This document shows positions 18,530-61,439 of a DNA stretch of 64,000 nt, piece after piece (position 1 is the first letter of the stretch; each line of letters opens with the position of its first letter). The DNA is from Chthoniobacterales bacterium. Lineage in GTDB: Bacteria > Verrucomicrobiota > Verrucomicrobiia > Chthoniobacterales > JACTMZ01. The DNA lies in assembly GCA_041736875.1 (NCBI GenBank), contig JBGSSV010000194.1, positions 1,993-65,992 of the forward strand, given 5' to 3'. Position numbers and translations under genes: made by a program. Below the pieces are notes generated by a model that saw only the letters and a list, made by a program, of their open reading frames with translations, was not told the DNA's origin and searched no databases.

Positions 18530-18659
18530 GGTTGTGGTCGGGGTGTGTGGGGAGTGGATGGGAAGAATAGGACGATCCGTTAGGCCGGTGGCCTTGCGCA
18601 ATAACGGCTTCAGGCAAAGAAAGAGAGGGTTTGCAAAGGATTGCTGATTTTTGTGTCTG

Positions 18660-24838: not shown

Positions 24839-24893
24839 GGTGTTTTTCCAATAAACTGCTAGTTTGAAAGTTGTCTGTCCCCCTCCCCCGGAG

Positions 24894-34633: not shown

Positions 34634-34634
34634 A

Positions 34635-41250: not shown

Positions 41251-42597
41251 CTACGGCTGCGCTCCTTCGATGGTGGTTGGAGGACTTTTGGCGGCGGAAT
41301 CTGGCACCTTGAGGGCGATGGTGCTCGCAGATGCCCCACCTTTGTTGTCCTGGGCATAGACCATGAGGAGGTATTCGCCGGGGGTCTCCGGCGCTCTAAG
41401 CACCGCGTGTTCCGGGGACGCCTGCAGGAATGGACCGGCCACGGATTTGGTCGGGCGGGCTTTGGCGTCAAGAATCCAGGTGACGAATTCCACCGTGTCG
41501 TCGTTCGGATCCAGCGCCTCGAAGCGCACGGTCATCGGCTCACCGGGGGCGGCCAATCTTGAGGCCAAGCCGCCCTCAAACTCTAGTTTGACGAGGACAG
41601 GGGCGCGGTTGCCTGCGGGGGGATGGCCGGTGAAATTCTCGAACATGACCTCGGCCTGGGGCGTGATCATAAGGTCGTCGTAGGAGGCGTTCTTCGCAAT
41701 TCCGTTGGGATGGGAATTGAGCAACAGGCTGAAATAGGTCGGGCGGTAGCTGGTGGCGTGCCCCCACAAAAAAATCGTGGATCCCAAGCACAAGGGCGAG
41801 GCATCGATGGCAGCGTAACATCCGATCAGGTCGTTTACTTTCCGGTTCACCGGCTCGTCAAGCTCCACGCCCCAGTCGGTTTTCCCGAAGTTCCAGGGTC
41901 CCTTGGTATTGAACTCGGACATGTAGAATGGTTTGCCCCAGACGGCTTCGGCCTTCTTGATCGAGCCGCCGACCGCACCAAGGCTGTAGCTCTGCACCCC
42001 AAGGACGTCGATGTCCGGGGCGTATTCCTTGATCGCCGCAACACCCTCTTCCTTGACATTGATCACCGTCAGGCTGGTGAGGTGATGAGGGAAGCGCTTG
42101 TGAATCTCCTCCGACATGCGGTTGGCGACGCGCAGGTAGGGCTCATCGAGGGGAACCTCATTGCCGAGGCCCCACATGAGAAGCGCAGGATGGTCCCCGA
42201 TGCCCTCAACCTTGGTGATGAGGTCTGCGATCATTTTCTCCCCCCGGACCGCATAATCGAAATCCCACGAGGAGCCGTTGCGGCTTTTGTTTTCGCCTTG
42301 GTGCGGCATCCATTCACTGACAATCATCTTCATGCCGAGACGGTGGGCGTGATCAAGTTTCTCACGCATGGCCTCGACCGATGGGATGGTATAGCCCCGC
42401 ACCGTGTTGACGCCGAACGAGGCGAGCCGGTCCAGATCGGTATCCCCGCAAACGCCCTTGATTTGGAAGTTCTGGAAGCGGTCGAACCTTTTTCGCTCAA
42501 TTTCAGACATTCCCTCAGGGAGGACGAATGATTGGGCAAAGGCTGATCCCATCAGGAGCAACGCGATGAGTGGGGTGAGTCGAATGATTTGATTCAT
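41251..42597 (-). CDS. secreted clan GH-A glycoside hydrolase, family unresolved (paralog B of 35771..37120)
   Basis: ATG at 42597 gives MNQIIRLTPLIALLLMGSAFA. It is collinear with paralog A: FQIKGVCGDTDLDRLASFGVNTVRGYTI, LLMWGLGNEVPLDEPYLRV, PFYMSEFNTKGPWNF and NRAPVLVKLEFEGG. Confidence 0.7.
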   Translation of the reverse strand: MNQIIRLTPLIALLLMGSAFAQSFVLPEGMSEIERKRFDRFQNFQIKGVCGDTDLDRLASFGVNTVRGYTIPSVEAMREKLDHAHRLGMKMIVSEWMPHQGENKSRNGSSWDFDYAVRGEKMIADLITKVEGIGDHPALLMWGLGNEVPLDEPYLRVANRMSEEIHKRFPHHLTSLTVINVKEEGVAAIKEYAPDIDVLGVQSYSLGAVGGSIKKAEAVWGKPFYMSEFNTKGPWNFGKTDWGVELDEPVNRKVNDLIGCYAAIDASPLCLGSTIFLWGHATSYRPTYFSLLLNSHPNGIAKNASYDDLMITPQAEVMFENFTGHPPAGNRAPVLVKLEFEGGLASRLAAPGEPMTVRFEALDPNDDTVEFVTWILDAKARPTKSVAGPFLQASPEHAVLRAPETPGEYLLMVYAQDNKGGASASTIALKVPDSAAKSPPTTIEGAQP

Positions 42598-42668
42598 AAA
42601 CACTTTGGCTAATCCGGAAAATCCGTGCAGTTTGAGGTTGGTGATGGGGTTGCCAAAGGAGGGGCGAC

Positions 42669-44030
42669 TCATGACTCCGGCGGACGGACCGGAGTCAACG
42701 CCTCAGCGCGTGCCCTCAATTCGGGCTCGCGCTCAATGTTGCGCTCGATGGCCCGGTTGATTTCCGAGGCCAGCTGCCGTGCGGCCTCCTCGGGGGTGAC
42801 CACGCGATTTTCCAGACGCCCAAGGCTTTCTTGGATCCAGCGTTGCACTTGGGCCGCATCGATGAAGGGGCTTGTTCCGGGAGGAACAGCATCACGGATG
42901 GCATCGACGAATACCTGGTGGAAGGCGGGGTCGGGGATGCCGCTGTTGGCCAGTGCGGTGCCATCCTGAGCCAACTCCGGGCTGGGTGGAAGCGCATCAC
43001 CATCGTCGACAATCGAACGGCCATACTCGGGACTGGTGAGGTGCACGAGGAACTTCACCGCGGCCTCGGGGTGGGCGGTCTTCGCATTGACGGCGACTCC
43101 CCTCGCGCGGGTGAACCCCCGCGAGGGCTGACCCGGCAGACGTGGCAGACGTGCAGCGGCGAGGTTGCCTTTGAGGTTGGGAAAACTGTCTACCTGCACC
43201 GTGAACCAACGCCCGATAATGATCATGGCCGCCTCGCCCGAGGAAAACCAGTTGATGCCGCCGGCGCCGAACCCACCCTGGCTGGACATGGCCGCGGTTT
43301 GCTCGGGCGGCGGGAGGACACCGTCCACGAACATCAAGTCATGGTAGTGCTTGAAGGCGGCGACCGCTGCGGGCGAATCCAGCCGGCTGGTCCGTCCGTC
43401 TTCACTGAAGAAACGCCCGCCATGGGCCACCAGCAATTCGGTGAACATGTCGGGAGGGGCGTAGTGCGCTACGGCAATATGCTCCTTGCCGCTCTTCGAG
43501 GGCGCATCCTTGATTGCTTTGGCCGATGCCACGAAATCGTCCCAAGTCCAGTCGGCCCTCGGATAAGCAACCCCGTGGTCGTCGAAAATCGCCTTGTTAT
43601 AGAGCACAGCCTGCACGTTCACGTTGGCAGGGAAACGGTATTGTCGCCCGTCCATCATCAGCGCCTCACGAATCGCCGGAAACGTTTTCGACGGATCAAA
43701 TCCGTGTTCCTTGGCCAAGTCGGTCAAGTCGAGCAAGAGCCCGGCCTGCACCATGCTGTTCATCACGGATTCCGAGACGTCCATGAGGTCGGGTCCGACC
43801 CCTGTTGCGCATTGCACAAGGAGCTTGGTGGAGTCCCCCGTCTCGGTGACGACTTGCAAGCCGGGATTGGATTGCGCAAACCCCGCGGTTTGACGGTCGC
43901 GGGCCGGGTTGGGGTCAGTTGCCCATCGCAGGACGACCTCGCTTTCCCCGGCCTGCGGCTTGAGCGTGCCGACAGCGAGGGCGTAGAAGCCGAGAAAGAC
44001 GATGAAGGCCGCAGCAAAGATGTATTTCAT
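42669..44030 (-). CDS. ABC-transporter extracellular solute-binding protein (family 1, sugar type), N-terminally anchored
   Basis: MKYIFAAAFIVFLGFYALAV is the anchor. VVLRWATDPNPARDRQTAGF...GPDLMDV and the overall ~450-aa pattern are typical of carbohydrate binding proteins. No intact permease or ATPase gene lies nearby. Confidence 0.75.
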   Translation of the reverse strand: MKYIFAAAFIVFLGFYALAVGTLKPQAGESEVVLRWATDPNPARDRQTAGFAQSNPGLQVVTETGDSTKLLVQCATGVGPDLMDVSESVMNSMVQAGLLLDLTDLAKEHGFDPSKTFPAIREALMMDGRQYRFPANVNVQAVLYNKAIFDDHGVAYPRADWTWDDFVASAKAIKDAPSKSGKEHIAVAHYAPPDMFTELLVAHGGRFFSEDGRTSRLDSPAAVAAFKHYHDLMFVDGVLPPPEQTAAMSSQGGFGAGGINWFSSGEAAMIIIGRWFTVQVDSFPNLKGNLAAARLPRLPGQPSRGFTRARGVAVNAKTAHPEAAVKFLVHLTSPEYGRSIVDDGDALPPSPELAQDGTALANSGIPDPAFHQVFVDAIRDAVPPGTSPFIDAAQVQRWIQESLGRLENRVVTPEEAARQLASEINRAIERNIEREPELRARAEALTPVRPPES

Positions 44031-44132: not shown

Positions 44133-46226
44133 TCAGTTCTCTCTCGCAGCCGCAGCTTCCGGCGGAGCGGCAGTAGCGTCCCCAATGCGGCCTTGGGCAT
44201 CGCCAAGCCGCCAGGCATGCAGCCCGCGAGAAACGTTGCGCAGGGCGTCATTCAACGTCTTCACCGGGCGGTCCACAACCGTGACCAAGCCGACGCCGAA
44301 ATTTTCCCCGTCGCCCCGTCCGGTGACCCCCTGATCGCCCCATTGGAACCAATGAGCACCCACGAAATTTGGGTGGCGCAGCGCATCCGACAAAAAGGCC
44401 TGCACAACATCGGCCTGGTTGCGCGCATCGGCCGCCCACGTCAACCCCGTGCCCAGATTGCCGTGATCCCGCATGCCGAAGTGGAATTCACTGATCAGCC
44501 ACGGCCGGTCCACCTCGGCACCCATGGAGAACCCATCGAGGTCGTGTTGGTAGATGTTGATAGAGAGGACGTCGCAATACCGCGAGGCAACCTTTCTGAC
44601 CATGGTGTTACGGACGTTGAATCGGTTGCCGAGATAGAGATGGTGGGGAAAAAATCGGTCCATGGCTGCACGGCAAAGCCCGAAATACTTGTCGGCAAAC
44701 GAAGCCAAAAAGTCCTCGAGATCCTGCTGGTAGGCTTTCTCGCCGCCCGGCCCCGGATTGGGCGTGATGGCGGTGAGATCAGCAAAGCTTGTGCCCCAGG
44801 CCTTGTTGAGCGCGGCGACATCTCCGTGACGCTCGCGCAAGAACTCGATCAAGGCGACGCGCGCGGGTGTCTGCTCGGAACTCTTGATGATCTCCTGCAC
44901 CAGTTTGGTGTCTCCCGTCCAATTGAGCTCGTTGTCCACAAAGATGCCGACCAGCCACGGGCTCGCCGCGTGGTCGGCGGCAAGAGACGCCATGCTTCTC
45001 TCCAGCGAGTCGGTGAAAGACTTGGAAAATGGATCGGCAATCTTATCGAGCGAACCCAACCGCGCCATCGCTGTGTGAATGATCAGGGTGTAGGGGACGC
45101 GTTGGGTCTGCAAAAGCTCCCTTCTCGACCATGCCCCGGCAGTGTTCACGCCCCAGTCCAACATCCGCGCCACCGTGACGTCGACGTGCTGCTTGAGCCA
45201 ATCGTCCCCGCCATACTTGCGCTTCAGATTATCCTCGTAGATCTCGACTTTCGGCTGACCTCGCATCGATTCGGGGAACAAGTGCTCGCGCCCTCGGACG
45301 ATCGATTCCGCCCCGTAGGACGCGCCGTTGACGCCGACGGACCAGAATAAGTCGCCCTCCGGATCGACGAACCACCACTTGCCATTCACTTTCTCGACCC
45401 GGAAAAAGCCTGTTGCCTCCAACTTGGGGCCACCGATCAGGCCCCCGAAGCGGCTGCGCTTGTCACCAAAGTTGGTCACGGTGGACGCGAAAGCGACATC
45501 CCTCCGGCCATCTTCCCGCAGTTCCTCCGCGCTGCGCACCTTGCCGGGCCAATCCAACCACCGCGCCTGGCCGAACTCGTCCACCATGGGAAGCTCGAAA
45601 GTGTCAAGCAACGCAGGATCCGTGCTGTAGTCACCAGAGCCCCGCGGACCCCCGATCTCGATGGTCTGACCGGCTTTTGCATTCCGCCAAGTGATCCGCA
45701 CAGTGACCCGCCGGATCGCGGCCGGATCCGCGGCAGCCCAATGAGAGCTATGTCCCCACGGGAAGGCGAAAAGCTGTCCGAGACGTTTCACGTGCGGGTG
45801 CTCGGAGGGCAGAGTCTGCCGAGCCAGGAGCGCGGTCATGTCCAGCTCTTCGTGTGCCCGGACCAGGAAACGGCCACTGGTGCCATAGCGCCATGCCTCT
45901 TCGGGGTTGCTCGTGGCCGCGATGAGCACATCAAGCTCTACAGCAGCGCCGTTCTTGATCGGAATCGCGATGTCCCGGAACGCTGATAAATCGAGCGGAG
46001 CGTCCTTGTAGGAAAATGTCACTGTCGCCCGCCCCGAAGGCTGAGTGGTCTCAAGGGCAACCGTTCCGCGAGGATCGTCTCCCGCAGTCGCGTCCATAGA
46101 AATTCGAGCCTCACCCGTCACTGCGGGCGCCAAGGCACTGACGGGCCCGGTGCTCACGAGTGCGATGACGAGCCCGCAGAGGAGAGGGCGGCTCAGTTTG
46201 GCGGTTGGGTCATTCCTCATAACCAT
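44133..46226 (-). CDS. secreted beta-sandwich + clan GH-A glycoside hydrolase, GH50/GH42-like (single-module paralog of 53152..57312)
   Basis: [53 protein letters not shown] and [26 protein letters not shown] are present. The family guess is from motif memory only. The start (46226 or 46220) overlaps the galE stop. Confidence 0.7.
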
Positions 46227-47187
46227 CCGGATGTGCCCTGTGCCAGTCCCACGCGCTCTGCACGATCATTTTCAAATCCGCGTAGCGCGGCGTCCAACCC
46301 AACTCCCGCCGGATCTTGTCGCTGCCAGCCACCAGCGTGGCCACATCGCCGGGACGGCGCTCCCCCATTTCCACGGGGATCGGGTGACCGCTGATCGCCC
46401 GTGCGGCATCAATGACTTCCTTGACCGAAAAGCCCAGCCCGTTGCCCAGATTGTAGACGCGGCTGCCGGAGTCAAGCGCCTCCAGCGCGAGAATATGGGC
46501 CTGCGCGAGGTCCACCACGTGGATGTAATCCCGCACACAGGTTCCATCCGGTGTGGCATAATCGCTGCCGAAGACCGTGACGTGCTCGCGCTGTCCGAGC
46601 GCCACCTGCAGGACGATGGGGATCAAATGTGTTTCCGGGTCGTGGTCCTCGCCTCGCTCAGGGGTTCCGCCGGCGGCATTGAAGTAGCGGAGACACGCGG
46701 AGTGCAGGCCGTGAGTTCTTTCCAACCAGTAGAGCATGCGCTCGATGATGAATTTCGACTCACCGTAGGGGCTTCCCGGGATGATCTTGGCCGTTTCATC
46801 GATCGGAATTTTTTCCGGATTGTCGAAGAGATTGGCCGTGGACGAAAAAATGAACCGCTTCACGCTCCGGTCGGCCGTCACCTGCAGGAGGTTCAATGCG
46901 TTGGTGATGTTCTCGCCGAGATAGAGGAAGGGCTTCTGCATGGACTCGCCCACCAGACTGCGTGCGGCAAAGTGCATGACCGCCTCGGGTTTGTGTTGCG
47001 CAAACACCTGCTCGACCTCGCCGATGTTGGCCAGATCCCCCTCCACGAATGCCGCCTTCGGATGCACCGCGGCGCGGTGACCCTGGCTCAAGTTGTCGAA
47101 CACCACGACATCGTGCCCGGCGCGGATGAGTTCAGCCGTTGCCGTGCTTCCGACATAACCAGCTCCGCCTGTGACCAAGACTTTCAT
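46210..47187 (-). CDS. galE: UDP-glucose 4-epimerase
   Basis: [14 protein letters not shown] is the Rossmann motif. The gene also has PYGESK (YxxxK), the typical ~325-aa length and a position next to galT. Confidence 0.92.
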
Positions 47188-47206
47188 AGGAAATCCTGTT
47201 TGTTGT

Positions 47207-48247
47207 TTATTTGTGCCGGTAATGTGTGGCCGGCAGTTCGCGCAGGCGTTGGGCCGCCTGCTCCGCTGTGAGATCGCGCTGGGCCTCCGCCAACATCTCG
47301 TAACCGACCATGAATTTCTTCACGGTGGCCGAGCGCAGCAGGGGCGGATAAAAATGCGCGTGCAACTGCCAGTGGGCGAGATCCCCCGCCTCATTCGGCG
47401 CACCGTGCCAGCCCATGGAATAGGGAAACGAGGTCTCGAAGAGGTTGTCGTAGCGGATGAGCAGCGCCTGGAGCACTTCGGCCAAGCTGGTGCGCTCCGC
47501 CTCCGTCAAGTCCGGCAGACGCAGAACATGACGGGTCGGCAGCAGCAGGATTTCATACGGCCAGAGTGCCCAAAATGGAACCACCGCGACCCAGTGCTCG
47601 TTGCTCACGACGACGCGGGTCTGATCTGCCATCTCGCGTTGCACGTAATCAAGCAGCAAGACAGATCCGTGCTCGTTCCGGTAAATCCGCTGCTCGCGGT
47701 CCTCGATCGCGATCTCGTTCGGCAGGAAATTGCCGGCCCACACCTGGCCGTGCGGGTGCGGGTTGGAGCATCCCATCACCCCGCCCTTGTTCTCGAAGAC
47801 CTGCACCCAGCGGTAACGCCCACCGAGTTCGGCGGTTTGCTCCGCCCAAACGTCCACCACCTTGCGGATGTCCGGCACGGCCATTTCGGCCACCGTCAAA
47901 TCGTGGCGCGGGGAAAAGCAGATGACGCGACACTCGCCCCGCACCGGATCGACGCGCAGCAGGTTGTCTTCCGCCCCCCTTGCTTCCGGCGTGTCGGGGA
48001 GCAAGGCCGAAAAGTCGTTCGTAAAGACAAAGGTGGATTCGTAATTCGGATTCACATCATCGCCCGAACGCTTGTTGCCCGGGCAGAGGTAGCAGGTGGG
48101 ATCGTAGGCCGGACGCCCGTCGTTGGCCGCCTTCTCCGTCTGGCCCTGCCACGGGCGCTTGGTGCGATGTGGTGAAACCAGGATCCACTCGCCGCGCAAG
48201 GGATTGAAGCGGCGATGCGGATGTTCATCCGAATGAAAGGTTGTCAT
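47207..48247 (-). CDS. galT: galactose-1-phosphate uridylyltransferase (class I)
   Basis: [30 protein letters not shown] (zinc site) and [10 protein letters not shown] (HPH active site) are present. Confidence 0.92.
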
Positions 48248-48272
48248 GGATATTTAACGTTTGCGGTTTGGA

Positions 48273-50459
48273 TCAGATCTCACTCCCGGCGAAATCGAAC
48301 CACATGGAAGCGTTAGCCGCCAATTCGACGGTGCGCTCCCGGCCCTCGCCGTCAGTGATCTGCGTGGTCTGGGGTCCGTTGGAGTTGTTGATCACGATGT
48401 ATTTGCCTGTCTTCGGGTAGGCGGCAATTTCCGTGTGGATATTCGTGGAGAACCAGCGCCTGGCCATCTCGTCTTCCCGACCCGAGGCGAACCAGATCGC
48501 GCGTTGCAACAGGCGGCTTTGCTCCGCGCCAAGTTTGAATCCGGCCAGATACACACCGCGTCCCTTCCCGTAACTGTTGGCAGCGATGGTGACGCTGCCC
48601 TCGCCATCCTTCGCCACAATCTCCGTCGTCCCGACGCAGGGATAGATCCGCTGCACATGTTTGCCCAGATCCGGCGCGGTGCCGTTGGAATCGGCCAGGA
48701 TGAAATGACTTTCCCTCACCTCTGTGGGGATCACCTTCTTGGTGTCGTTGGAGAGGCCGTATTCTTTTTGCACGCCGAGAACATCCCACATTTGGTAGAA
48801 AGCACCGCCGTTTTCCGCCGCCGTGGGGTCTAGGACACCCAAGAGGCCGCCCCCATTGTCCACAAACTCGCGGATGGCCGCGACGACGCGGGGGTCTTTC
48901 CAATTCTCGCCGCCGCTCCACGAGGTGCCAGCGTGGCCGAGATTGATGATGACACCCACATCCGCGGGAATGCCGTTCCGGATGTCGTCGAAATTGATCC
49001 ACAAGAGATCGAACGGCTGTCCCGAGAGCGACTCAATGATCGCGCCTTCCGGCCAGGATTGATCGTAACCCCAGGAACGGTCGCGGCCCCAGGCATTGAG
49101 GATCGCCACCTTGAAGGGCGCATTCTCGACGGGGGTGAAATCCGTGTGCTCGCAAATCCCGTAGAACTCCTTGGTTTGATGCTCGATGTAGTCGATGAAG
49201 TCCGGGAACTTGACGGCCAGATCCAAATACCCGCCGTAGCCGATGCGATGGACGAGTTTGCGGAGCATGGCCCGGCGGATCCACATCCAGTATTTCTTGC
49301 AGTCGGCCACCGGATCGCCACCCTCCTGAAACGTGGGTCGGTTGAGCAGATCGACCGCGAAGAAGTAGGGGTAAAGGCGGAGCTCTTTGACCAACTCGCC
49401 CGGCACGTCGGCGATGCGACGAACTTCGCGGCCATTGATGCAGGGCCCGATGATTCCGTCGAAGCCGATCTGCTGGAACTTCGGCTTGTAGGGTTCCGTG
49501 CCGATCCAGTGGTCGCAGTAGAAGAGCACCGCCTTCTTGCCGACCGCGTGAACCTGCTGAACGCACTGCTTGGCCCAATCGACCATGAACTCGTGGACGA
49601 ACTCGATCCAATCGAGGTAAGCCTTGCTGGGCACGCGGTCGGTCGAGCAGAGGTAGCCGTTGTCGATGATGTCATTCGGGCGCAAGCGATATCCCTTCTT
49701 CGCCTCGAATTCGTCAAGAGCCTGGGCGGACATGCAGTCGAGGTAGCCATACCAATCCTGATAGAGCGTCTCGTGCGCCGGGTTGGTGATGATGGGAAAT
49801 TGGTAGGCCATCGAGGTGAAGCGCACGTAGTCCGTGCCGGGATGGGTTTCCAGCCACTTGTCGAGGAACTTGGCCAGATGCTCCCGGGTCGCCTTCTTGC
49901 GCGGATCCACCCCGGACTGGTGCGGCTTGTCGCCCCAGTTGTTGGTGAGGTGATTATACATCGAGGTCGTTTCCCAGATCTGGAAGACGAGGAAATTGAC
50001 GCTGTAAACATTCCACTTGGCGCAGTTGCGCACCGTGACGATGCCGCGGGCGTAATCCCAGTCGGAGGTCGGCACGACCTCGCCGGTCGTGCGGTTGATC
50101 ACCTCCCAATACTTCTTGGCGTCGTTGATCTCATCGATCCGGTATTGCTGCGGCGAATACCGTGCGAGGATGTCGATCTGCATGGTGGCCTCCCGGGCCA
50201 CCTGCGGCGTGGAGAAGAGATACTTCTGCTGGTTGTCCTCGGGATGGGCACGGTTCCACTCCTGGTCCGCCCGGATCAGGCAAAGCGTGGAATAAATGTC
50301 ATAGCCGAGGCGGGTGATCGAGTCCGACAGGACGGTTCCATCCGAGTCGCGGATGGCATCCGCGCCCCAGCGCTTCGCGAGGTCCACGACCACGTCGTCC
50401 ATTCCTGCTTGGGCCGGCAGGGTGAACCCCCCTCGCTTTGCGTGTGTTTTTTCAGGCAT
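48273..50459 (-). CDS. GH112 beta-galactoside phosphorylase (1,3-beta-galactosyl-N-acetylhexosamine phosphorylase family)
   Basis: ATG at 50459 gives MPEKTHAKRGGFTLPAQAGMDDVVVDLAKRWGADAIRDSDGTVL. This matches the conserved N-terminus of lacto-N-biose/galacto-N-biose phosphorylases (G.FTLP...WGADAIR.SDGT). The length is ~728 aa. The tracked 808-aa ORF carries a spurious extension. Confidence 0.85.
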   Translation of the reverse strand: MPEKTHAKRGGFTLPAQAGMDDVVVDLAKRWGADAIRDSDGTVLSDSITRLGYDIYSTLCLIRADQEWNRAHPEDNQQKYLFSTPQVAREATMQIDILARYSPQQYRIDEINDAKKYWEVINRTTGEVVPTSDWDYARGIVTVRNCAKWNVYSVNFLVFQIWETTSMYNHLTNNWGDKPHQSGVDPRKKATREHLAKFLDKWLETHPGTDYVRFTSMAYQFPIITNPAHETLYQDWYGYLDCMSAQALDEFEAKKGYRLRPNDIIDNGYLCSTDRVPSKAYLDWIEFVHEFMVDWAKQCVQQVHAVGKKAVLFYCDHWIGTEPYKPKFQQIGFDGIIGPCINGREVRRIADVPGELVKELRLYPYFFAVDLLNRPTFQEGGDPVADCKKYWMWIRRAMLRKLVHRIGYGGYLDLAVKFPDFIDYIEHQTKEFYGICEHTDFTPVENAPFKVAILNAWGRDRSWGYDQSWPEGAIIESLSGQPFDLLWINFDDIRNGIPADVGVIINLGHAGTSWSGGENWKDPRVVAAIREFVDNGGGLLGVLDPTAAENGGAFYQMWDVLGVQKEYGLSNDTKKVIPTEVRESHFILADSNGTAPDLGKHVQRIYPCVGTTEIVAKDGEGSVTIAANSYGKGRGVYLAGFKLGAEQSRLLQRAIWFASGREDEMARRWFSTNIHTEIAAYPKTGKYIVINNSNGPQTTQITDGEGRERTVELAANASMWFDFAGSEI

Positions 50460-51582
50460 GTTGGTTTTCTGATTCCGGGTGATTTCGCTTTTCAAAAACG
50501 GTGAGATCCCAACCATCGTGCCAGTGAATCGTGAAGCCTCGGTCTGCTTGCCACGAAACCGGAAGCCACACATAACGACCGTCGATCGCATTGGCGGGGG
50601 TCCAAATATCGAACAGGGCGATGAACGCATCGGCGAGGCCATGGACCTTCTGCACGTAAGTGCTCTGCGCTCCGAAGGTCTTCTCCGGGCCGAACCCATT
50701 CTGCGGGTTCACCCCCCGGCAAGGGTTCTCCATCTCGTGCCAGGGGCCCATGATGTTTTGCGCGATGGCGCAGCGGGCCGCGTTGGGGTCCCAACCGGTG
50801 CAACCGCTGGCAATCAGGTAGTAAAATCCATCACGCTTGAAGACCGCCGCGGCTTCCATGTAGCGGCCCTCGAAGAGGCGGACGAAGCGCCCGGCCGGGG
50901 AAAGATAATCTGCCTCAAGTTCCGAGATGTGAAGAGTGCTATTCTCCTCGGAGGAAAAGATATGATACGCCTTGCCGTCCTCATCCACAAAGAGGTTCAT
51001 GTCGCGGGCCATCTGGCCGTGGGGCAGGTCGCGGGCGAAGATGTTACTTTGGATGACGTTCAGTCGCGGCAGCGGATGGTCGCCAGTGAACCCATCGCCG
51101 ACCAAGCCCGGGGAATGTAGCGTAGGGGAATCATTCAGCGGATAGGCCCCCGCGTTGGGACGAAAGGCGCGAAGGTAGGTGAACGGTCCGGTCGGCCGGT
51201 CAGCCACGGCAACCCCGCTGCTGGCGGTGTCATAGCCGCAGCCCTTTTTTTCCAGGTGAAACCACATGACAAACTTCCCGGTGGACGAGTTGAAAATCAC
51301 CTTGGGGCGTTCGAGAATGCAGCCGACTTCGATGTCATGGCCGGGCTCCGTGCTGACCGCGAGGGCAATGCCTTCGTCCTTCCAATCGTAAAGATCCGGG
51401 GAGGAATAAGCATGCACGCCGACCATGGCCCGATTGCCCGCGTCGCCTTCGATCTTGTGCTCCCCGAACCAGTAGTAAGTCCCCTCGTGGAAAAGCAGCC
51501 CACCCCCGTGGGCGTTGATGGGGACACCGTTGGTGTCATTCCAGGTTTTTCCCGGCTCAAACATGCGAAGCGACGTGCTCAT
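50452..51582 (-). CDS. cytoplasmic GH43 hydrolase, exo-beta-1,3-galactanase-like
   Basis: PINAHGGGLLFHEGTYYWFGEHK and GKFVMWFHLE are the GH43 blocks. No signal peptide is present (MSTSLRMFEPGKTWND). The 3' end overlaps the GH112 start by 8 nt. Confidence 0.75.
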   Translation of the reverse strand: MSTSLRMFEPGKTWNDTNGVPINAHGGGLLFHEGTYYWFGEHKIEGDAGNRAMVGVHAYSSPDLYDWKDEGIALAVSTEPGHDIEVGCILERPKVIFNSSTGKFVMWFHLEKKGCGYDTASSGVAVADRPTGPFTYLRAFRPNAGAYPLNDSPTLHSPGLVGDGFTGDHPLPRLNVIQSNIFARDLPHGQMARDMNLFVDEDGKAYHIFSSEENSTLHISELEADYLSPAGRFVRLFEGRYMEAAAVFKRDGFYYLIASGCTGWDPNAARCAIAQNIMGPWHEMENPCRGVNPQNGFGPEKTFGAQSTYVQKVHGLADAFIALFDIWTPANAIDGRYVWLPVSWQADRGFTIHWHDGWDLTVFEKRNHPESENQHA

Positions 51583-51641
51583 ACTTTTTCCTGATCTTCG
51601 GCTTCTTGGACGATGGTGAATGGTGTTTCCGCTTGGGGTTC

Positions 51642-53162
51642 TCAGATTCCAGCCCGCAAGCGCTCGAGCTCCCTGCGGTTATTCTCCGCCTTTTCCCTCG
51701 TGAGGGGATAGAACTTGAGAAGGACGAAACACAGGATGGCCGGACCGGCAGCGCCCAGGCACATGGCCAGGCGCATGTTAAGGTAGGTTTCCGGGCTCTG
51801 CGATGACGCACCGGGATCGAAGCCGATGGCGTTGAGGAAAACGCCGATCATGACGAAGCTGATGGCAAACGAGGCTTTCATGAACCAGCCGTAGATCGCC
51901 CCGAACATGCCTTCTCGCCGACAGCCATTCTTGATCTCGTCATCGTCACACACGTCGGCAATCAGCGACTGGCCAAGAACACCCACGCCGATCCAGAACA
52001 GGCCGCCAGTCAAAGGATCGAGCCAAATGAGCGACTGAAAGACCGCGACGAGCGAACCGCCCACAGCCTCCAGACTCGACCAGCTCAGCGCGGTGTCGAA
52101 GCGACCGGGGCGATAGACAAACCAGCGGATGGCCGCGTTGAGGATCATCATGCCGTAGATGAACATGAAGCCGCGGATCTTGGTCATTTTCCCGGTCAAC
52201 CAGACGATCAAGGGGATGCCGAGAACGCCGACCAAAGCATAGCCGACGGTCACAATCAGCTTCCACTGCGTTCCCACCGCTACGTCGCCATTCGAGAGGT
52301 AGTAGATCAGAAGATACCAGTCCATGTTGCTGGCAAACATGCCGGCAATGATGGTGAAGACGGCGATGGCACAGAGAATCGCGAACGCCCGGTTTTGCAG
52401 GCACATCCGGACGGATGACCAGAAACGATCCCTCTTCCCGTGGTGTTCCTTGATGTTGATTTCATAGTTGCGCTCTCTGCCGAAGAAGGCGGGGAGCATG
52501 CCGAAGAGCGTCATGCCGATTCCGCCGTAAACGGCTGCGGACATGCGGATGCCTTCCATTTTCTCCGCCGTGGTCAGGTCGCCGGATTCGGCGTAGCCGT
52601 ATTTCCAGGCGATGAACATCAACGAGAAGGGAATCAGGCCCATGTAGGTCATCTCGCCCAAGCGGTTCCAGAATGTGACGTAGCCCTGCACGATGGTGCG
52701 CTCGTCGTAGTCCGGCGTCATCTCGTAGGTCAGGGCGATGAAGGGCACCGAGAAGATCGTGTAGGCGGTATAGAACAGAATGCTGGTCGTAAGGAACCAA
52801 GCCAGCTTTCCGGCATCGCTCCACTCCATCGGGATCATCCAGATTGATGCAAAGGTCAGGCCCATGAGAATGGCGCCGCAGAAAATGAACGGTCGACGGC
52901 GACCGAAGCGCGATCTGAAGTTGTCCGAGATATTCCCCATGATGGGGTCGGTGATGGCATCCCACAGGAGCGGGATGGCCAGCACGATGCCCACCCAGAA
53001 GGCATTGATGCCCAGAATCATGTTCAGCACCGCCTGTCCGGTCGTGCGAACGCTTTGGTTGCCCAGTGAGACGGTGAATCCCCCAGTGCCTACCGACAAC
53101 TTCTCGGCGATGCTCAGTTTCCCGCTGTTTGGCGCCGGTGGCTGATGTGGGCTATTGTCCAT
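51642..53162 (-). CDS. glycoside-pentoside-hexuronide (GPH):cation symporter, MFS
   Basis: ATG at 53162 gives MDNSPHQPPAPNSGKLSIAEK. DAITDPIMGNISDNFRSRFGRRRPFI is the GPH signature, and about 12 hydrophobic segments follow. Confidence 0.85.
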   Translation of the reverse strand: MDNSPHQPPAPNSGKLSIAEKLSVGTGGFTVSLGNQSVRTTGQAVLNMILGINAFWVGIVLAIPLLWDAITDPIMGNISDNFRSRFGRRRPFIFCGAILMGLTFASIWMIPMEWSDAGKLAWFLTTSILFYTAYTIFSVPFIALTYEMTPDYDERTIVQGYVTFWNRLGEMTYMGLIPFSLMFIAWKYGYAESGDLTTAEKMEGIRMSAAVYGGIGMTLFGMLPAFFGRERNYEINIKEHHGKRDRFWSSVRMCLQNRAFAILCAIAVFTIIAGMFASNMDWYLLIYYLSNGDVAVGTQWKLIVTVGYALVGVLGIPLIVWLTGKMTKIRGFMFIYGMMILNAAIRWFVYRPGRFDTALSWSSLEAVGGSLVAVFQSLIWLDPLTGGLFWIGVGVLGQSLIADVCDDDEIKNGCRREGMFGAIYGWFMKASFAISFVMIGVFLNAIGFDPGASSQSPETYLNMRLAMCLGAAGPAILCFVLLKFYPLTREKAENNRRELERLRAGI

Positions 53163-56100
53163 AAAGATTTCTTCCGCAGGCCGCCATGGCGCGGACCAGT
53201 TCGGCGTTGGGGCCGTCCGCGACATCATAGAGGCCGACGTCGAAATTCTCGCCATCGTAACGACCGGCGGCGCTCTGGTCACGCCACTGGAACCAGTGGG
53301 CGCCGACAAGTTTGGGATTTTTCACGGCTTCAGCGATGAATTCCTTGAGCAACCGCCCCTGCTGCACCGCATCTTGCGCGCTGCGCAAGCCGCCGCCGAG
53401 GTTGTTGCCCGAGACGTCGGCGAAATGGAATTCCGAGATGAGGACGGGCTTGTCGGTTGCGCCATACTGTTTGAGCTCGGGATGATAGGAGTAAATGTTG
53501 GCGCTGATCACATCGGCATGCCGGGCCAGCGCGGCGATGACCTCGGATGGACCGGAGTTCATCCGGCAACCGAGATATAGCACGTTGGGCGAGTAGGCGG
53601 TGAGTTCTTCCCGGACCATGCTGAACATGGTGTCGGCAAACAATGTGGCCAAGGCCGAGCAATCGGCGGCATCGGCCTCCGAAAACAAATCGGGGTCGGT
53701 TGTTTTCAACAGATCATCCCAACTCCCCAGCGTCGTCTTCCACGCTCGGTTCAGCGCCGCGATGTCGCCGTGCTTTTTCTTGAGCCATCCGATGAAAACC
53801 TTCCGCGCCTTCGAACCGGTGGTGCTGTGACCGAAGATGGCGCCGACCAGAAGCCGGGCGTCGTTCTTCCAATGCAGCTCGTTGTCCACGAACGCGCCGA
53901 GGCACCAGGGGTCGTTGGCAAACTTGACGGGATAACCTGCCAACGCCTTGCGCAAACTGAGGCGGGTTTCCGGGTTGAACGGGTCGGGCAGTTTAGGAGC
54001 AGCCTCGGGATACACGTAATGTAGCATGGCCACATAGGGCACTTCCCGGCGCTCGATGATGGCGTTGTCCGACCACGCACCGATGGTGTTGAGGTGGGTG
54101 TATTTGAGACGCTCGACATCCTGGTCGACCTGCTGCTTTTCCCAGCCCTCGCCGTATTTTCGCCATAGGTTGGCCCTCGTGAAATCGAAATGGGGCACGT
54201 CGGGCCGGGCAAGAAAGTTTTCCTCCACCTCGAGCTTCGTGTGGAAGCGCCCGAATACCGGGTCGTCCGCCGCAGGCAGATCTTGGAAGACCGCCTGATC
54301 CCGCTCGGTGGGCGTCTGGCCGGCGAAGTCAATGCCGATGCAGTTGGCGCCAAACGACCAGAAAAGCCGCCCCTCCGGATCCACAAACCACCATTTACCT
54401 TTCACCTTCTCCGAGCGGAAAAAGCCGGTCGCCTTGAGCTGGGGACCGGCCTGCCAGCCGCCATACTTATTGAGGTCGCGGGCCGGTCCGATTTCCCGGA
54501 CCAGCGCGTCTTCGACCTTTGCTTTCGCTTTGATGTCGTCATCGGAGAGGACCTTCCCCGGCCAGGTGCGGTGGAGGTATTGACCGTAACGATCAAGGAT
54601 CGGGAGGACATCGGCCAGGCTCTCATCCGTTTCTTGCAGTGGAGCCATGGGGCCGAGTTCGAACGCATGCTCCTCGGGAGTGGAGCAGGTGATGACAAGA
54701 TCCCTCACATCCGCCGGATCGAAGGTGTGCCAGTGGCGGAAGTAACCGTTCGGCCGACCGGACATGCGGAGGTAAGCCGGATGCTTCGCGCGATAGTCGG
54801 CCGTGCGTTGGAAGGCCACGCCCAGCGGCAGCGTCTCCCCAGATTTGATCACGGTGCGGCCAAGGGCGGACTTCGAAAACGTGGTCGCGCCGTCGTTGCG
54901 AGCCATCACGTCCAGAACAAGCTCCGTTGGTCCCGTGTTTTTCACTATCAGGCCGAGCACGCGGATATTCTGCATGTTCCAGGCCTCGCCGTGGGCCGGC
55001 TCCAGCACGAGGCGAAACGGACCTTGGCCGCGGATCTCCTGAACTTCCTTGCCTGGGGAGACTTTCACTCCCTCGCTTTTTTCAATGCGGTAGGGAATCG
55101 ACTCTGAGCCCGGGGCGCCAACTTCACCGCGCCAGAGCTTCTCGAGCGATTCCAGCAGGGTGGACGACTTGTCCGTTCCGAGCTCATACATGCGCTCGGA
55201 CATCGCGCGCGAGGCGCGGGTGATTTCCGGATACGGCGTGTCGGTCACATCCACGAAGCCTATCTGGTAGTTCTCCCCCGAGCTTCCTCCGGGTGACACC
55301 GGGCGGGCGGCGGCCGATTGGTCGGGGAAGGCGAACCAGTGCGTGCCGACGATATTCGGGTGCTTGAGGCCCGACAGCACGTAGGCCACGTAGGCACGAC
55401 TGCGCTGGATCTGGTCGCCGACCGGCCACAACCCCACGCCGGGCACCCCTCGGTCCGGAGCCCCGAAGTGGAATTCGGTTTCCATGCAGGGCATGTCGCC
55501 TGCCTTGGAAACCTTGGAGCCGGAGAGTGGTTCGTAGCTGTTGCCGCTGAGGACATCCACATACTTGGCCGATTCTTCGTAAACTTCTTGGTCGGCCTTG
55601 TGCTTGCGGGACCCGAGGTAGAGGTGGTTCGGCAAGGCCTCGCGCATGGCTTCGCGACAAAGCCGGTAGTAGGTGCCAGAGATGAGGCGCTTCAGGTCCG
55701 AGAGGTCGGCTTTGAAACCCTCGGTCTCGTTTTCGGCATCCGGCAGCGCCCCGATCGCTTGCCACGAGTCATAGGATGTTCCCCACGCGCTGTTGAGTTT
55801 TTTGATCGTCCCGTGCTTGTTTTTGAGCCATTCCACGGAAGCGATTCGTGCGGGCTGTTCGGGGCCGCGGAGGAAGGCATTCTGCACGAAGGGTTCGTTC
55901 CAATAGATCTCGTTGTCGATGAAGACGCCGAGAACCCACGGGTTGTCCTTGTCCGGAACGATCCGGCGCAGTCCCTCGACCACGCCGGCTTTGAAGTCCT
56001 TGGCGAACGGATCGACCACCTTGTTGCCGAGGGGCGAACCTTTGCCACCCAGATGGAGAATGGGGGTGAACGGCGTGCGTTGGTCCGCCATCAGCCCGGC

Positions 56101-57312: not shown

Positions 57313-57474
57313 CAGCTTCGAGGGGACGAGGGGGGCTTTCGCAGTTGACAATGGAACATAATGTCAGACAAATATCAAACAGATTGTAGCAGCTTCGTTT
57401 GCGCCGAAAAAAACCGTCACCGAGGCCTGTTGCAGTTAGTGTTCTAAAGCCCCCCCTTCGATTGAACCACGCTC

Positions 57475-60400: not shown

Positions 60401-60495
60401 CGAAGATGCAGGATTGGCGCCGGGAGATGAATCGTATGGCCTCGGAGAAGCGAAAGCATGATCAGCCGGAGGGCGGCTCTGCCGGCGCGCCATAG
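57475..60495 (+). CDS. tandem double sulfatase (two complete Cys-type sulfatase domains, 1006 aa)
   Basis: Signal-like N-terminus LFSAGALLGASLHCFATHTAFA. Domain 1 has PNIIIINADDLGFGDLGCYG and ATCTPSRYSLLTGRYP. After the linker QPTKPAPEASAARP, domain 2 has PNILFILCDDLGINDLHCYG and AICSASRAGLLTGLNP. Confidence 0.88.
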   Translation: MIEVQNQRRPLFSAGALLGASLHCFATHTAFAEMSNAETTASPTRPNIIIINADDLGFGDLGCYGADGIPTPNLDRMAAEGVRFTDFYATAATCTPSRYSLLTGRYPWRNPKAKILAGDAPMIIGKDELTLPAALKRAGYTTSVIGKWHIGLGDGTIDWNGDIRPSPNDVGFDESFIMAATADRVPSVYIQNGRVVNLDPADPLEVSYAKSNPFPDMPTGLTHPELLTMRHSDEQHAETIVNGVPRIGFSRGGKSATWDDATMTDVFLQQTKDFITRQKDSPFFLYMALHQPHVPRLPSKRFAGTSEKGPRGDVIMEMDWMVGEVLDHLKKSGLDKNTIVVFTSDNGPVLDDGYVDGSEERNGSHRPAGPLRGGKYSFFDAGARVPTIVWAPGMAKPGESDALLSQVDFLASFAHLVGQDLKPSETADSQQLADALLGKSEKGRDNLVTEGFGAKTLLREGPWVYIPPYPGPRLFGDKNVESGNSKVPQLYDLSSDIGQTKNVAPEHPEKVAAMKALLQSIRAQPTKPAPEASAARPPNILFILCDDLGINDLHCYGRKDHHTPHLDRLAAQGTRFTSAYASQAICSASRAGLLTGLNPARLHLTDWLPGRSDAVSQRVLHPEIMMNVPLSVKTLPRYFREAGYATGMVGKWHIGKSPGPAEHGFDFVYHPSDGKNTTPSETEGGKAEYELTRETIGFIEANKDRPFVAYLAHYTPHISYTAKQDLIDKNAQAFEPVYAALIETLDDSVGLLLNKLDELGLADNTIVVFTSDNGGLHVPEGGHVRVTHNTPFRAGKGHTYEGGQRIPLIVRWPGHVPAGRVVDAPVNNVDWIPTLLEMAGTTPPDGFDGVSFAHGLTGGAFPTRPLFWHYPHYTNQGGRPSGVMRDGRWLLVEYYDEDRTELYDLSAELEQKQDLAAREPARVATMKTALADWRRANDAQLNTPNPENDEEAFRKLYITVDSSTFDPTTADEAAWAKMQDWRREMNRMASEKRKHDQPEGGSAGAP

Positions 60496-61346: not shown

Positions 61347-61439
61347 TGCCGACCCCTTCGCGCATTTTGTGGCACCGGCACGAAACGCATCCCGCTTGAT
61401 CAGCCCTCTCTCCACCCTCCAACCCACCAACACACCCCC

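Follow-up and report, generated by a model that had tools for sequence, protein, structure and literature searches.

Five genes on the minus strand of the 64-kb stretch of DNA analysed here (the window), whose host is a PVC-group bacterium (Verrucomicrobiota or Kiritimatiellota), may be the cytoplasmic end of a large locus for the use of a sulfated, fucose-decorated galactan, in which a neutral beta-galactoside would be phosphorolysed, beta-1,3-galactobiose being the likeliest candidate. We favour this reading tentatively. In this marine-type locus, GH112 probably serves to process sulfated galactan from algae and not an amino-sugar disaccharide, since its branch of the family is consistently accompanied by a sugar symporter, by an enzyme that trims galactose inside the cell and by enzymes of the agarase family.

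The identity of the polymer, the flux direction and the nature of the acceptor are what we infer, and the pathway would run as follows. Outside the cytoplasm, secreted sulfatases, GH29 and GH95 fucosidases, a secreted GH43_24, GH35 and GH158-, GH128- and GH50-like enzymes would cut and strip the polymer. Short neutral beta-galacto-oligosaccharides would be imported by a GPH symporter, and a signal-less GH43_24 (GH42 in sister genomes) would trim non-reducing beta-galactose down to a disaccharide, which GH112 would split with phosphate into alpha-galactose 1-phosphate and a free neutral sugar. This sugar would most likely be galactose, i.e. the GH112 substrate would be Gal-beta-1,3-Gal. A class-I GalT and GalE would convert galactose 1-phosphate to glucose 1-phosphate, so that one ATP would be saved per disaccharide, and the free galactose would need a GalK encoded elsewhere. 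As no HexNAc would be released, NahK and NagK/NagA/NagB would be unnecessary.

The five genes and the surrounding cluster

An earlier note on this DNA had described the five genes, with gaps of 25 nt (GH112-galT) and 19 nt (galT-galE) and an 8-nt overlap of GH43 and GH112 (50452-50459), and all of this was confirmed. The gene identities and the split between cytoplasmic and secreted products were obtained directly. The galE gene (46210-47187) encodes a 325-aa UDP-glucose 4-epimerase (TIGR01179, 404 bits for a cutoff of 262; 40% identity to E. coli GalE), and galT (47207-48247) a 346-aa galactose-1-phosphate uridylyltransferase of class I, E. coli type (NF008724, 587 bits for a cutoff of 448; TIGR00209, 565 bits; 63% identity to E. 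coli GalT). The GH112 beta-galactoside phosphorylase of class A1 (728 aa, 48273-50459) contains each of the three Pfam domains of Lacto-N-biose phosphorylase, aligns with 2ZUS/3WFZ (about E-163) and scores 803 bits (cutoff 560) on TIGR02336, the curated equivalog model of Gal-HexNAc phosphorylase. Enzymes of this kind usually receive an annotation as phosphorylases of milk or mucin disaccharides. Next to it lies a GH43 subfamily-24-like exo-beta-1,3-galactanase (376 aa, 50452-51582), which matches 6EUG (7e-115), 3VSF (4e-60) and the named exo-beta-1,3-galactanases 7BYS (7e-42) and 5FLW (2e-31). No upstream extension of this ORF is possible, and the homology of its product to 6EUG already begins at residue 9, which leaves no room for a signal peptide and makes the enzyme cytoplasmic, as had been proposed. 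The fifth gene (51642-53162) encodes a 506-aa GPH/MFS_2 cation symporter (PF13347, 1.5e-65; TIGR00792, 152 bits, below its cutoff), the presumed oligosaccharide importer, in line with the suggested use of a GPH symporter instead of an ABC system.

These genes occupy the centre of a far longer cluster, since the GPH start overlaps the stop of one GH50-like gene by 11 nt and the galE stop overlaps the start of another by 17 nt. A co-directional glycan-utilisation cluster of about 27 kb has the module at its core and includes GH50-like, GH158-like, GH35, GH29, secreted GH43_24 and sulfatase genes. The first of the two overlapping neighbours (53152-57351, minus strand) encodes a secreted or anchored protein of 1399 aa with a hydrophobic N-terminus, a weak Glyco_hydro_42 Pfam match and two tandem GH50-like catalytic modules; its orthologues, at 50-75% identity, adjoin GH112 in 10 other loci. 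The second (44133-46226, minus strand) encodes a 697-aa enzyme of the same family, with a signal peptide, which matches Aga50D (4BQ2) at 7e-76 and keeps both catalytic Glu motifs (DNE and SEFH).

Further along the minus strand, Pfam scans identified a lone extracellular solute-binding protein (SBP_bac_1, 42669-44030), with no ABC permease in the 64-kb window. It is followed by a GH158-like enzyme (473 aa, 41251-42672; 9ORO 4e-35, 6PAL 5e-22) and by a GH31 gene (38998-41225) apparently frameshift-split into two overlapping ORFs, one with the catalytic and C-terminal domains (38998-40674) and one with the N-terminal Gal_mutarotas_2 domain (40473-41225). Then come a GH29 alpha-L-fucosidase with an F5/8 type C domain and a signal peptide (37156-38985), a second GH158-like enzyme without a Pfam match (449 aa, 35771-37120; 9ORO 2e-31, 6PAL 3e-27), a second GH43_24-like exo-beta-1,3-galactanase with a signal-peptide-like N-terminus (34635-35756; 7BYS 9e-71, 3VSF 8e-58) and a GH35 beta-galactosidase with an F5/8 type C domain (32318-34741). 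The co-directional run ends with a sulfatase carrying a PA14 domain (30273-32312).

On the plus strand, domain scans revealed a divergently transcribed double-sulfatase protein (1006 aa, 57475-60495), with an orthologue in the same position in one sister locus (L006, 79% identity), and a pair of small GH128-like (Glyco_hydro_cc) genes, one at 60507-61346 (6UAQ, 7e-37) and one at 61440-62285. A 1740-aa surface protein (24864-30086, plus strand) combines F5/8-C, ricin-B, a GH128-like catalytic core and He_PIG repeats, and in three other loci (L001, L002 and L015) similarly built proteins lie next to the GH112 module.

The earlier claim that no kinase-like ORF is present held. Pfam scans of every coding-like ORF in the 64-kb window found no kinase, galK included, and tblastn with E. 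coli GalK, a NahK-like APH, two ROK kinases, NagA and NagB gave no match at E<=1 in the window and 14 related A1 loci (297 kb in total), a kinase being found in 0 of the 15. Likewise, GH20, GH84, GH101, GH129 and GH136 were found neither in the window nor in the 14 sister loci. As a difference from the classical pathway, this kinase absence is conserved clade-wide, but taken alone it is weak evidence and not diagnostic of GH112 specificity, because GH112 enzymes of class C, which adjoin a GH101 endo-alpha-GalNAc-ase and are for this reason almost certainly GNB-acting, also have no kinase within 10 kb. On a Rathayibacter plasmid, the HexNAc route can run via ROK/NagA/NagB instead of NahK.

Synteny and the GH112 clade

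Synteny was counted over 15 unique class-A1 loci, window included, and its conservation is a direct observation. In all 15, GH112 is adjoined by GH43_24 (7 loci) or GH42 (9 loci; both in one), which fits the suggestion that imported oligosaccharides may be trimmed in the cytoplasm to a disaccharide that is then phosphorolysed. Of the 15 loci, 12 have a transporter of the same GPH family, 12 have sulfatases and 11 have GH50-like genes (11 of 12 among loci of at least 12 kb). The contiguity of GH112, galT and galE holds in the window but is not general, galT being linked to GH112 in only 3/15 A1 loci and galE in only 2/15; the conserved partner that defines the module is the GH50-like (agarase-family) enzyme, together with sulfatases. 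The core of GH50-like, GPH, GH42/GH43_24 and GH112 genes recurs in MAGs that carry the labels of five or more different PVC lineages, with GH112 identities as low as 76%. A complete 3,6-anhydro-L-galactose (AHG) pathway adjoins the module in Pontiella desulfatans, where the genes that follow encode an aldehyde dehydrogenase, a cycloisomerase of 3,6-anhydro-L-galactonate (1.8e-194 to 5XD7), a Zn-ADH and a KduD-like SDR, together with a regulator whose family also adjoins GH112 in L015 and L027; no AHG genes were found in the 64-kb window or in the other 13 A1 loci.

In a neighbour-joining tree of GH112 classes A1, A2, B, C, D and E, from which the characterised Gal-Rha phosphorylases (Cphy_1920, Oter_1377) were left out, the window enzyme belongs to the tight clade A1, whose members come from Pontiella and from MAGs of the PVC group and share at least 67% identity. 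This clade is monophyletic inside an insertion-bearing superclade A1+A2+B, apart from classes C, D and E, the last of which contains the Bifidobacterium longum enzyme BlGLNBP (LnpA; 2ZUS/3WFZ). The window enzyme shares with BlGLNBP the three domains and 70 positions conserved throughout the family, among them R32, N166, the catalytic Asp (Bl D313, window D316), R358, Y362 and F364, but is only 42% identical to it. A1 and class E are separated by 36 fixed differences, including D160E, P161T, G312C, S336P, V337C, G338I, G357L, L360Y, D366P and a 6-aa insertion after PYFF that marks the superclade (VDLLNR after PYFFA in the window). Canonical GNB/LNB-type enzymes have neither this insertion nor the superclade's replaced acceptor-side loop residues; P161, V162 and S336 are positions that we take to lie near the acceptor.

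The GPH family of the window adjoins GH112 only in A1, A2 (with GH42 and GH53) and B (with GH28, GH106 and GH105, i.e. rhamnogalacturonan genes), whereas class E goes with ABC transporters and either ROK or NTP-transferase, APH and GalE. In Blautia schinkii (L040), a cluster of ABC, NTP-transferase, APH and GalE genes has a GH112 of the insertion class immediately upstream. Clade, motifs and gene context support the view that the window GH112 is not a canonical GNB/LNB-type enzyme. To that extent, the earlier idea of a non-HexNAc acceptor is plausible.

The acceptor sugar and competing readings

Judging from sequence, our best guess for the substrate is beta-1,3-galactobiose, with L-rhamnose, AHG and HexNAc as less probable acceptors. 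The characterised galactosyl-rhamnose phosphorylase (GalRhaP) also transfers galactose to O3 of D-galactose and D-glucose (PMC4336185), giving Gal-beta-1,3-Gal and Gal-beta-1,3-Glc, which supports galactobiose. Against galactobiose, an exo-beta-1,3-galactanase could hydrolyse it, which would make the phosphorylase partly redundant. The GH53 of class A2 is a beta-1,4-galactanase, and gives no pointer to a beta-1,3 linkage. The TIGR02336 score, the APH cluster of B. schinkii, the lack of galK in the window and the AHG pathway of P. desulfatans also count against it, as does the fact that GH50 is mainly an agarase family.

An ordinary Gal-beta-1,3-HexNAc (GNB/LNB) phosphorylase, with a GalNAc/GlcNAc kinase (NagK, AgaK or NahK) elsewhere and a mucin- or glycosaminoglycan-like sulfated, fucosylated target, is unlikely. 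It would account for the TIGR02336 score and for the fucosidases, sulfatases and SASA esterase of the locus, as in mucin loci, and the kinase-less class C and the Rathayibacter route are in its favour. It is opposed by the absence of GH20, GH84, GH101, GH129, GH136, NagA, NagB and ROK from the window and its 14 sister loci, by the low identity to BlGLNBP, by the other superclade with its insertion and its substitutions at 160-162, 312, 336-338 and 357-366, by a GPH transporter rather than ABC or SSF, and by the E. coli type of GalT.

That the enzyme is a D-galactosyl-beta-1,4-L-rhamnose phosphorylase (EC 2.4.1.247), as Cphy_1920 and Oter_1377, is quite unlikely. GalRhaP is the sole characterised GH112 activity with a non-HexNAc acceptor (PMC8950772), one example is from a verrucomicrobium, and A1 shares the insertion superclade and the GPH family with the rhamnogalacturonan-I-associated class B. 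However, A1 and class B, which is likened to GalRhaP by gene context, are only 44% identical and differ in the acceptor-side motif (GPCINGRE against LIKCVFNAFEA), and rhamnosidases (GH78/GH106), GH28, GH105 and rhamnose catabolic genes are absent from the window and every A1 locus.

We also consider improbable an agar-type pathway, in which the GH50-like enzymes would be beta-agarases, GH112 would split Gal-beta-1,4-(3,6-anhydro-L-galactose) of agarobiose or agarotriose, and GH42/GH43 would be the agarolytic beta-galactosidase. The Aga50D match with both catalytic Glu, the AHG genes of P. desulfatans and the known GalRhaP acceptor, also an O4-linked L-sugar, agree with it. Yet those genes are confined to one of the A1 loci, GH117, GH16 and GH86 were not seen, and agar offers no role for fucosidases or two GH43_24 enzymes. 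Moreover, beta-agarases release AHG-capped neoagaro-oligosaccharides, in which GH117 is needed before a beta-galactoside is exposed, and agar does not support growth of P. desulfatans (PMC7356697). Chance adjacency without pathway meaning, in genomes with hundreds of CAZymes and sulfatases (PMC7356697) and with the sparse galT and galE linkage, is very improbable given the stop/start overlaps (8, 11 and 17 nt), consistent with co-transcription and coupled translation, and the recurrence of the core across PVC lineages.

Relation to known systems

As in the lnpABCD GNB/LNB pathway, neighbouring genes of the window encode the uridylyltransferase and the 4-epimerase that would receive the galactose 1-phosphate. 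The window differs by its GPH symporter instead of ABC, the lack of NahK, the class-I GalT, a cytoplasmic exo-galactosidase inside the operon, and a context of sulfatases and GH50-like enzymes instead of HMO or mucin enzymes.

With the Bacteroides arabinogalactan-protein PULs, including that of B. plebeius for sulfated AGP (PMC8406133), the window shares GH43_24 and sulfatases, here for a putative sulfated beta-1,3-galactan backbone, accompanied by GH35 and other galactosidases; on such a galactan (Codium AGP), a sulfatase is required before GH43_24 acts (PMC8406133). Those PULs are SusC/D-based, purely hydrolytic and periplasmic, whereas the window has one of its GH43_24 enzymes in the cytoplasm, coupled to phosphorylase and GPH symporter, and GH145, GH127 and arabinofuranosidases were not seen in the window.

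The three GH50-like modules share fold-level sequence similarity and both catalytic glutamates with Aga50D and with the beta-1,3-glucanases PaBglu50A and Fsa16295Glu, which GH50 now takes in (PMC11079163). In these loci they never occur with GH117 and co-occur with galactose-specific enzymes and GH112, a combination with no earlier description for GH50. Pairs of an exo-hydrolase and a disaccharide phosphorylase have so far not been described for galacto-oligosaccharides with GH112; the GH94 and GH130 pairs acting on beta-glucans and mannans follow the same import-trim-phosphorolyse logic, with ATP saved (PMC8950772).

The galactoside module and its genes

The module is made of five minus-strand genes, all of them named in the earlier note and all confirmed in the window: a GPH/MFS_2 symporter (51642-53162; PF13347 at 1.5e-65), a GH43 (50452-51582), a GH112 (48273-50459), a class I galT (47207-48247) and galE (46210-47187). 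Their spacing is also the one first reported, with gaps of 25 and 19 nt and an 8-nt overlap between the GH43 and the GH112. The Leloir pair passes the curated equivalog models for both enzymes, NF008724 for the class I GalT (587 bits against a cutoff of 448; 63% identity to E. coli GalT) and TIGR01179 for GalE (404 bits against a cutoff of 262; 40% identity to the E. coli protein). A scan of 44-58 kb for promoters and terminators gave counts no higher than those of shuffled sequence.

The GH43 falls within subfamily GH43_24 and is predicted to be an exo-beta-1,3-galactanase. It matches 6EUG over residues 9-359 (7e-115), as well as the named exo-beta-1,3-galactanases 3VSF (4e-60), 7BYS (7e-42) and 5FLW (2e-31). 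Since its ORF cannot be extended and the homology to 6EUG already starts at residue 9, the enzyme has no signal peptide, as had been claimed. It was also considered as a GH117-like anhydrogalactosidase, and this was rejected: GH43_24 structures match at E-115 and no GH117 structure was among the matches.

The window encodes no kinase either, in agreement with the first reading of the sequence. None was found by Pfam over all coding-like ORFs, and tblastn searches of the window with E. coli GalK, a NahK-like APH, two ROK kinases, NagA and NagB gave zero matches at E<=1. We nevertheless rejected the missing kinase as a sufficient argument for a non-HexNAc substrate, because class C, a GH112 class linked to GH101, has none either.

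The cluster around the module

The earlier note ended at the borders of the module, and a larger unit continues on both sides. In this GC-rich window (59-69%), 15 co-directional minus-strand genes run from 57351 down to 30273, with small gaps or overlaps between them. Upstream of the symporter, whose start overlaps its stop, is a gene for a 1399-aa protein with two GH50-like modules (53152-57351, minus strand). On the other side, a third GH50-like gene (44133-46226, minus strand) begins within galE. This third protein belongs to GH50 by its match to the exo-beta-agarase Aga50D (4BQ2, 7e-76) and it keeps both catalytic glutamates: the one that 4BQ4 carries as Gln (motif DNE) and the one in SEFH each align to a conserved Glu. 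The GH50-like partner takes three forms among the loci that we compared, namely the tandem double module of 1399 aa in the window, an 1845-aa sulfatase/double-GH50 fusion in a Verrucomicrobia MAG (L002, 932-6469) and single modules in Pontiella.

Further downstream, a lone gene for a solute-binding protein comes first, followed by one of two GH158-like genes, an apparently frameshifted GH31, a fucosidase of GH29, the other GH158-like gene, another GH43_24 (its N-terminus resembling a signal peptide), a GH35 and finally a sulfatase. Divergent from the cluster are two GH128-like genes and a double sulfatase and, farther off, the window holds additional GH29 genes as well as a GH95, a SASA esterase and a GH128-like surface protein of 1740 aa. 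No HexNAc-active or rhamnose-active family was found in the window locus. The gene content as a whole suggests a locus for the use of a galactose-rich polymer that is sulfated and decorated with fucose.

Several of these genes deserve a comment of their own. GH158 and GH128 are both known for beta-1,3-glucanases; the two GH158-like genes (41251-42672 and 35771-37120) and the three GH128-like genes (24864-30086, and two in 60507-62285) may have shifted in specificity, the rest of the locus being oriented towards galactose and fucose. The GH31 (38998-41225, minus strand) is split, with the Gal_mutarotas_2 N-terminus in ORF 40473-41225 and the catalytic and C-terminal parts in 38998-40674. They share about 200 nt, read in different frames, so that the gene is either frameshifted, a pseudogene or affected by a sequencing error. 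The SBP_bac_1 protein (42669-44030, minus strand) lies inside the cluster and has an N-terminal anchor, and there are zero ABC permease or ATPase genes across the 64 kb; its role may be to bind glycans at the cell surface instead of serving a transporter. A DDE_Tnp_1_4 transposase fragment (6e-40; 21673-22152, minus strand) sits between a LacI-family regulator and a plus-strand block of fucosidase and GH128-like genes. Upstream of a LacI-family regulator, small N_methyl (prepilin-type) and LamG-like proteins accompany two very large PATR-repeat proteins, which resemble autotransporter passengers (8260-11700 and 14501-18601, minus strand); this set is typical surface machinery of the PVC group.

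The GH112 family and its gene contexts

The window GH112 carries the three LNB-phosphorylase Pfam domains (PF09508 4e-164, PF17385 1e-63, PF17386 5e-21) and matches the Bifidobacterium longum GNB/LNB phosphorylase (BlGLNBP; 2ZUS/3WFZ) over its full length at about E-163. Its D316 aligns to D313 of BlGLNBP, the residue reported as the catalytic proton-donor Asp (Nishimoto and Kitaoka 2007). This Asp is the same in 18 of 18 sequences and, in the larger set of 88, is conserved to at least 98%. More generally, 70 positions are at least 98% conserved through all classes, including R32, N166, R210, W233, D313, R358, Y362 and F364; because these are kept, the protein is very probably an active phosphorylase that would bind Gal-1-P in the usual way. 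It also passes the GNB/LNB equivalog TIGR02336 (803.5 bits against a cutoff of 560.3). Since all six GH112 classes described below are annotated by that model, it probably does not separate acceptor specificities.

The best 31 database matches of the protein, at 67-92% identity, come from Verrucomicrobiota, Kiritimatiellae, Victivallales and Pontiella, and beyond them identity falls to 54% or less. We built an alignment of BlGLNBP, its sequence taken from the PDB alignment, and the GH112s of 88 loci; classes were defined by motif and then checked on a neighbour-joining tree. Classes A1 (with the window protein), B, C, D and E (with BlGLNBP inside) are monophyletic, while A2 is a paraphyletic set that forms one superclade with A1 and B. 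The marker of this superclade is a 6-residue insertion straight after a conserved PYFF, a signature present in all 120 best database matches of the window protein.

Mean identity between A1 and class E is 44% (42% for the window protein against BlGLNBP), and 36 positions differ in a fixed manner. These cluster at 160-161 (D160E, P161T), at 312 (G312C, which neighbours the catalytic Asp), at 336-338 (S336P, V337C, G338I), at 357-366 and at the insertion. The characterised Gal-HexNAc motifs WDPVxMYN, LGD[QH]W, VVGS[VI]G[DN]G and TEGRFLPYFFPDTF correspond in the window protein to WETTSMYN, YCDHW, IIGPCINGRE and KELRLYPYFFAVDLLNRPTF. P161, V162 and S336 are said, after work by Nishimoto et al. in 2012, to tune the preference for GNB or LNB near the HexNAc O4.

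To describe gene contexts, the ORFs of all loci, called by our own greedy procedure, were clustered and the recurrent families annotated with Pfam; flanks extend to at most 10 kb, several loci are short contigs and the genome scan gave the best 80 loci. Class E shows the classical GNB/LNB logic, with AraC, a solute-binding protein, two ABC permeases, and ROK or NTP-transferase plus a NahK-like APH and GalE as neighbours; APH or ROK adjoins GH112 in 8 of its 14 loci. Class D, with an ABC transporter and GH29, resembles the locus of a Rathayibacter plasmid, one of the two distant GH112s that were the sole finds of a plasmid search. There, a class D-like arrangement (ABC, GH29) is followed by ROK, NagB and NagA, so it serves as a HexNAc-type control. 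Class C neighbours a GH101 endo-alpha-N-acetylgalactosaminidase and an SSF symporter, with no kinase within 10 kb. Its substrate is almost certainly GNB, and it looks like a non-ABC, kinase-less GNB route; its loci (L036, L038, L047 and others) come from Verrucomicrobia, Planctomycetota and Kiritimatiellae. Class B is found with GPH, GH28, GH106 and GH105, a context of rhamnogalacturonan-I, which is the expected source of Gal-beta-1,4-Rha. Class A2 combines GH112, GH42, GH53 and GPH, often with GH2 or GH35 and a conserved 611-aa protein, in a galactan-type context. A separate case is Blautia schinkii DSM 10518 (L040), which has two GH112 genes 5 kb apart, one of class E and one of an insertion class, the latter followed directly by two ABC systems, an NTP-transferase, an APH of the NahK type and GalE.

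The context of class A1 is of a sulfated galactan type. Over its 15 unique loci, window included, GH112 is always adjoined by GH43_24 (7 loci) or GH42 (9 loci; both in one). GPH and sulfatases each occur in 12 of the 15 loci, and GH50-like genes in 11 (11/12 among loci of at least 12 kb), while GalT is found in 3/15 and GalE in 2/15. No ABC importer, and no linkage to NahK, APH, ROK, NagA or NagB, was found in the window or in its 14 sister loci (kinases, NagA and NagB: 0/15). In the closest locus, a metagenome contig whose GH112 is 92% identical, the gene order is that of the window, with the double GH50-like gene leading to galE and the third GH50-like gene.

Substrate, acceptor and rival readings

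GH112 is treated nearly everywhere as a marker of human milk oligosaccharides or mucin, and automatic annotation calls every member a Gal-HexNAc phosphorylase. The classes described here show that most environmental GH112 diversity lies in context-defined classes without HexNAc logic. The only GH112 activities listed in a 2022 review are Gal-HexNAc and Gal-Rha (PMC8950772); neither a new specificity nor the module itself came up in our search of the GH112 literature from 2022 to 2026, and of GH112 together with GH43_24, GH50 or Kiritimatiellota. With A1, an uncharacterised GH112 subfamily stands at the centre of a pathway architecture that is conserved and undescribed, and the chances that A1 has a truly new acceptor specificity are about even.

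We infer the following route. Secreted enzymes would desulfate, defucosylate and cut the polymer, and short beta-galacto-oligosaccharides would enter via the GPH symporter. A cytoplasmic exo-beta-galactosidase would then trim them, a position at which GH43_24 and GH42 are interchangeable across the sister loci; GH43_24 is known for beta-1,3-galactan only. The remaining disaccharide would be phosphorolysed by GH112, and Gal-1-P would enter the Leloir pathway through the class I GalT and GalE.

The most likely acceptor is D-galactose, with Gal-beta-1,3-Gal as the substrate, and this for several reasons. The GH112 has a GH43_24 partner, a second, secreted GH43_24 lies in the same cluster, and the locus holds no HexNAc-active or rhamnose-active enzyme. 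In a side reaction, the characterised Gal-beta-1,4-L-Rha phosphorylase (GalRhaP) already places Gal on the O3 position of D-Gal and of D-Glc (PMC4336185). Sulfated beta-1,3-galactans exist in marine algae (Codium AGP), and a sulfatase is required before GH43_24 can act on them (PMC8406133). Finally, the GH50-, GH158- and GH128-like genes belong to families with beta-1,3-glycanases, which also occur within GH50 (PMC11079163).

A standard GNB/LNB phosphorylase (lnpABCD pathway, EC 2.4.1.211) with its kinase encoded at a distance would fit the TIGR02336 score, and class C tells us that a missing kinase is not diagnostic. We consider it unlikely, however, because the window GH112 differs from this type in clade, acceptor-side motifs, transporter type and gene context alike. 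An agar-type substrate, Gal-beta-1,4-anhydrogalactose with 3,6-anhydro-L-galactose (AHG) as the acceptor, is kept alive by GH50 being an agarase family and by Pontiella desulfatans (GCA_900890425.1; L001, 14588-20420), in which five genes directly abut the GH112 module. They encode an aldehyde dehydrogenase, a 3,6-anhydro-L-galactonate cycloisomerase (5XD7, 1.8e-194), a Zn-ADH, a KduD-like SDR and an AraC/PBP regulator, and presumably make up the complete AHG pathway, from 3,6-anhydro-L-galactose to KDG. Such genes are however found neither in the window nor in the 13 remaining sister loci, the same holds for GH117, and Pontiella desulfatans was reported without growth on agar (PMC7356697), all of which makes this substrate a less likely one.

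A Gal-beta-1,4-L-Rha phosphorylase (EC 2.4.1.247) is also unlikely: A1 shares its superclade and transporter family with the rhamnogalacturonan-I-linked class B, but rhamnose logic appears in 0 A1 loci, and GH28, GH105 and GH106 are found in class B only. With the characterised GalRhaPs Cphy_1920 (ABX42289.1) and Oter_1377 (ACB74662.1), the comparison is one of gene context, and the rhamnose or rhamnogalacturonan-I genes expected around such an enzyme are lacking in the window and in the A1 loci. Their organisms were absent among the best 80 loci of the genome-collection scan (18-sequence alignment), homology searches from the Lachnoclostridium class D and Blautia insertion-class proteins gave no match named as GalRhaP, and the names of ten 50%-identity cluster representatives were uninformative in this respect.

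Taken as a whole, our proposal is evenly poised: A1 would have a third GH112 specificity, for a neutral galactosyl disaccharide (beta-1,3-galactobiose or, less likely, an agarobiose-type Gal-beta-1,4-anhydrogalactose), its GH50-like partners would bring a new exo- or endo-galactanase activity to an agarase family, and the two would form an ATP-saving phosphorolytic route by which Verrucomicrobiota and Kiritimatiellota use sulfated marine galactans. If the acceptor of A1 and A2 is neutral, this new phosphorylase specificity would be of use for the synthesis of galacto-oligosaccharides from Gal-1-P, and GH50-like enzymes would gain a function beyond agar degradation. It would also supply a testable piece of the digestion of sulfated algal galactans and galactofucans by the PVC group, relevant to marine carbon turnover, and metagenome counts of GH112 could no longer be read as a potential for HMO or mucin.

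Class A2, which is much larger and has GH53 and GH42 in its context, may follow the same phosphorolytic logic. The link to GH53 suggests that A2 substrates may be sugars derived from beta-1,4-galactan, so the superclade of A1, A2 and B is maybe not uniform in substrate. In 11 of 22 A2 loci, GH112, GH42 or GH53 is adjoined by the protein of about 611 aa (L025, 6317-8152), which has zero Pfam or NCBIfam matches and could be a galactan-related enzyme of an undescribed kind.
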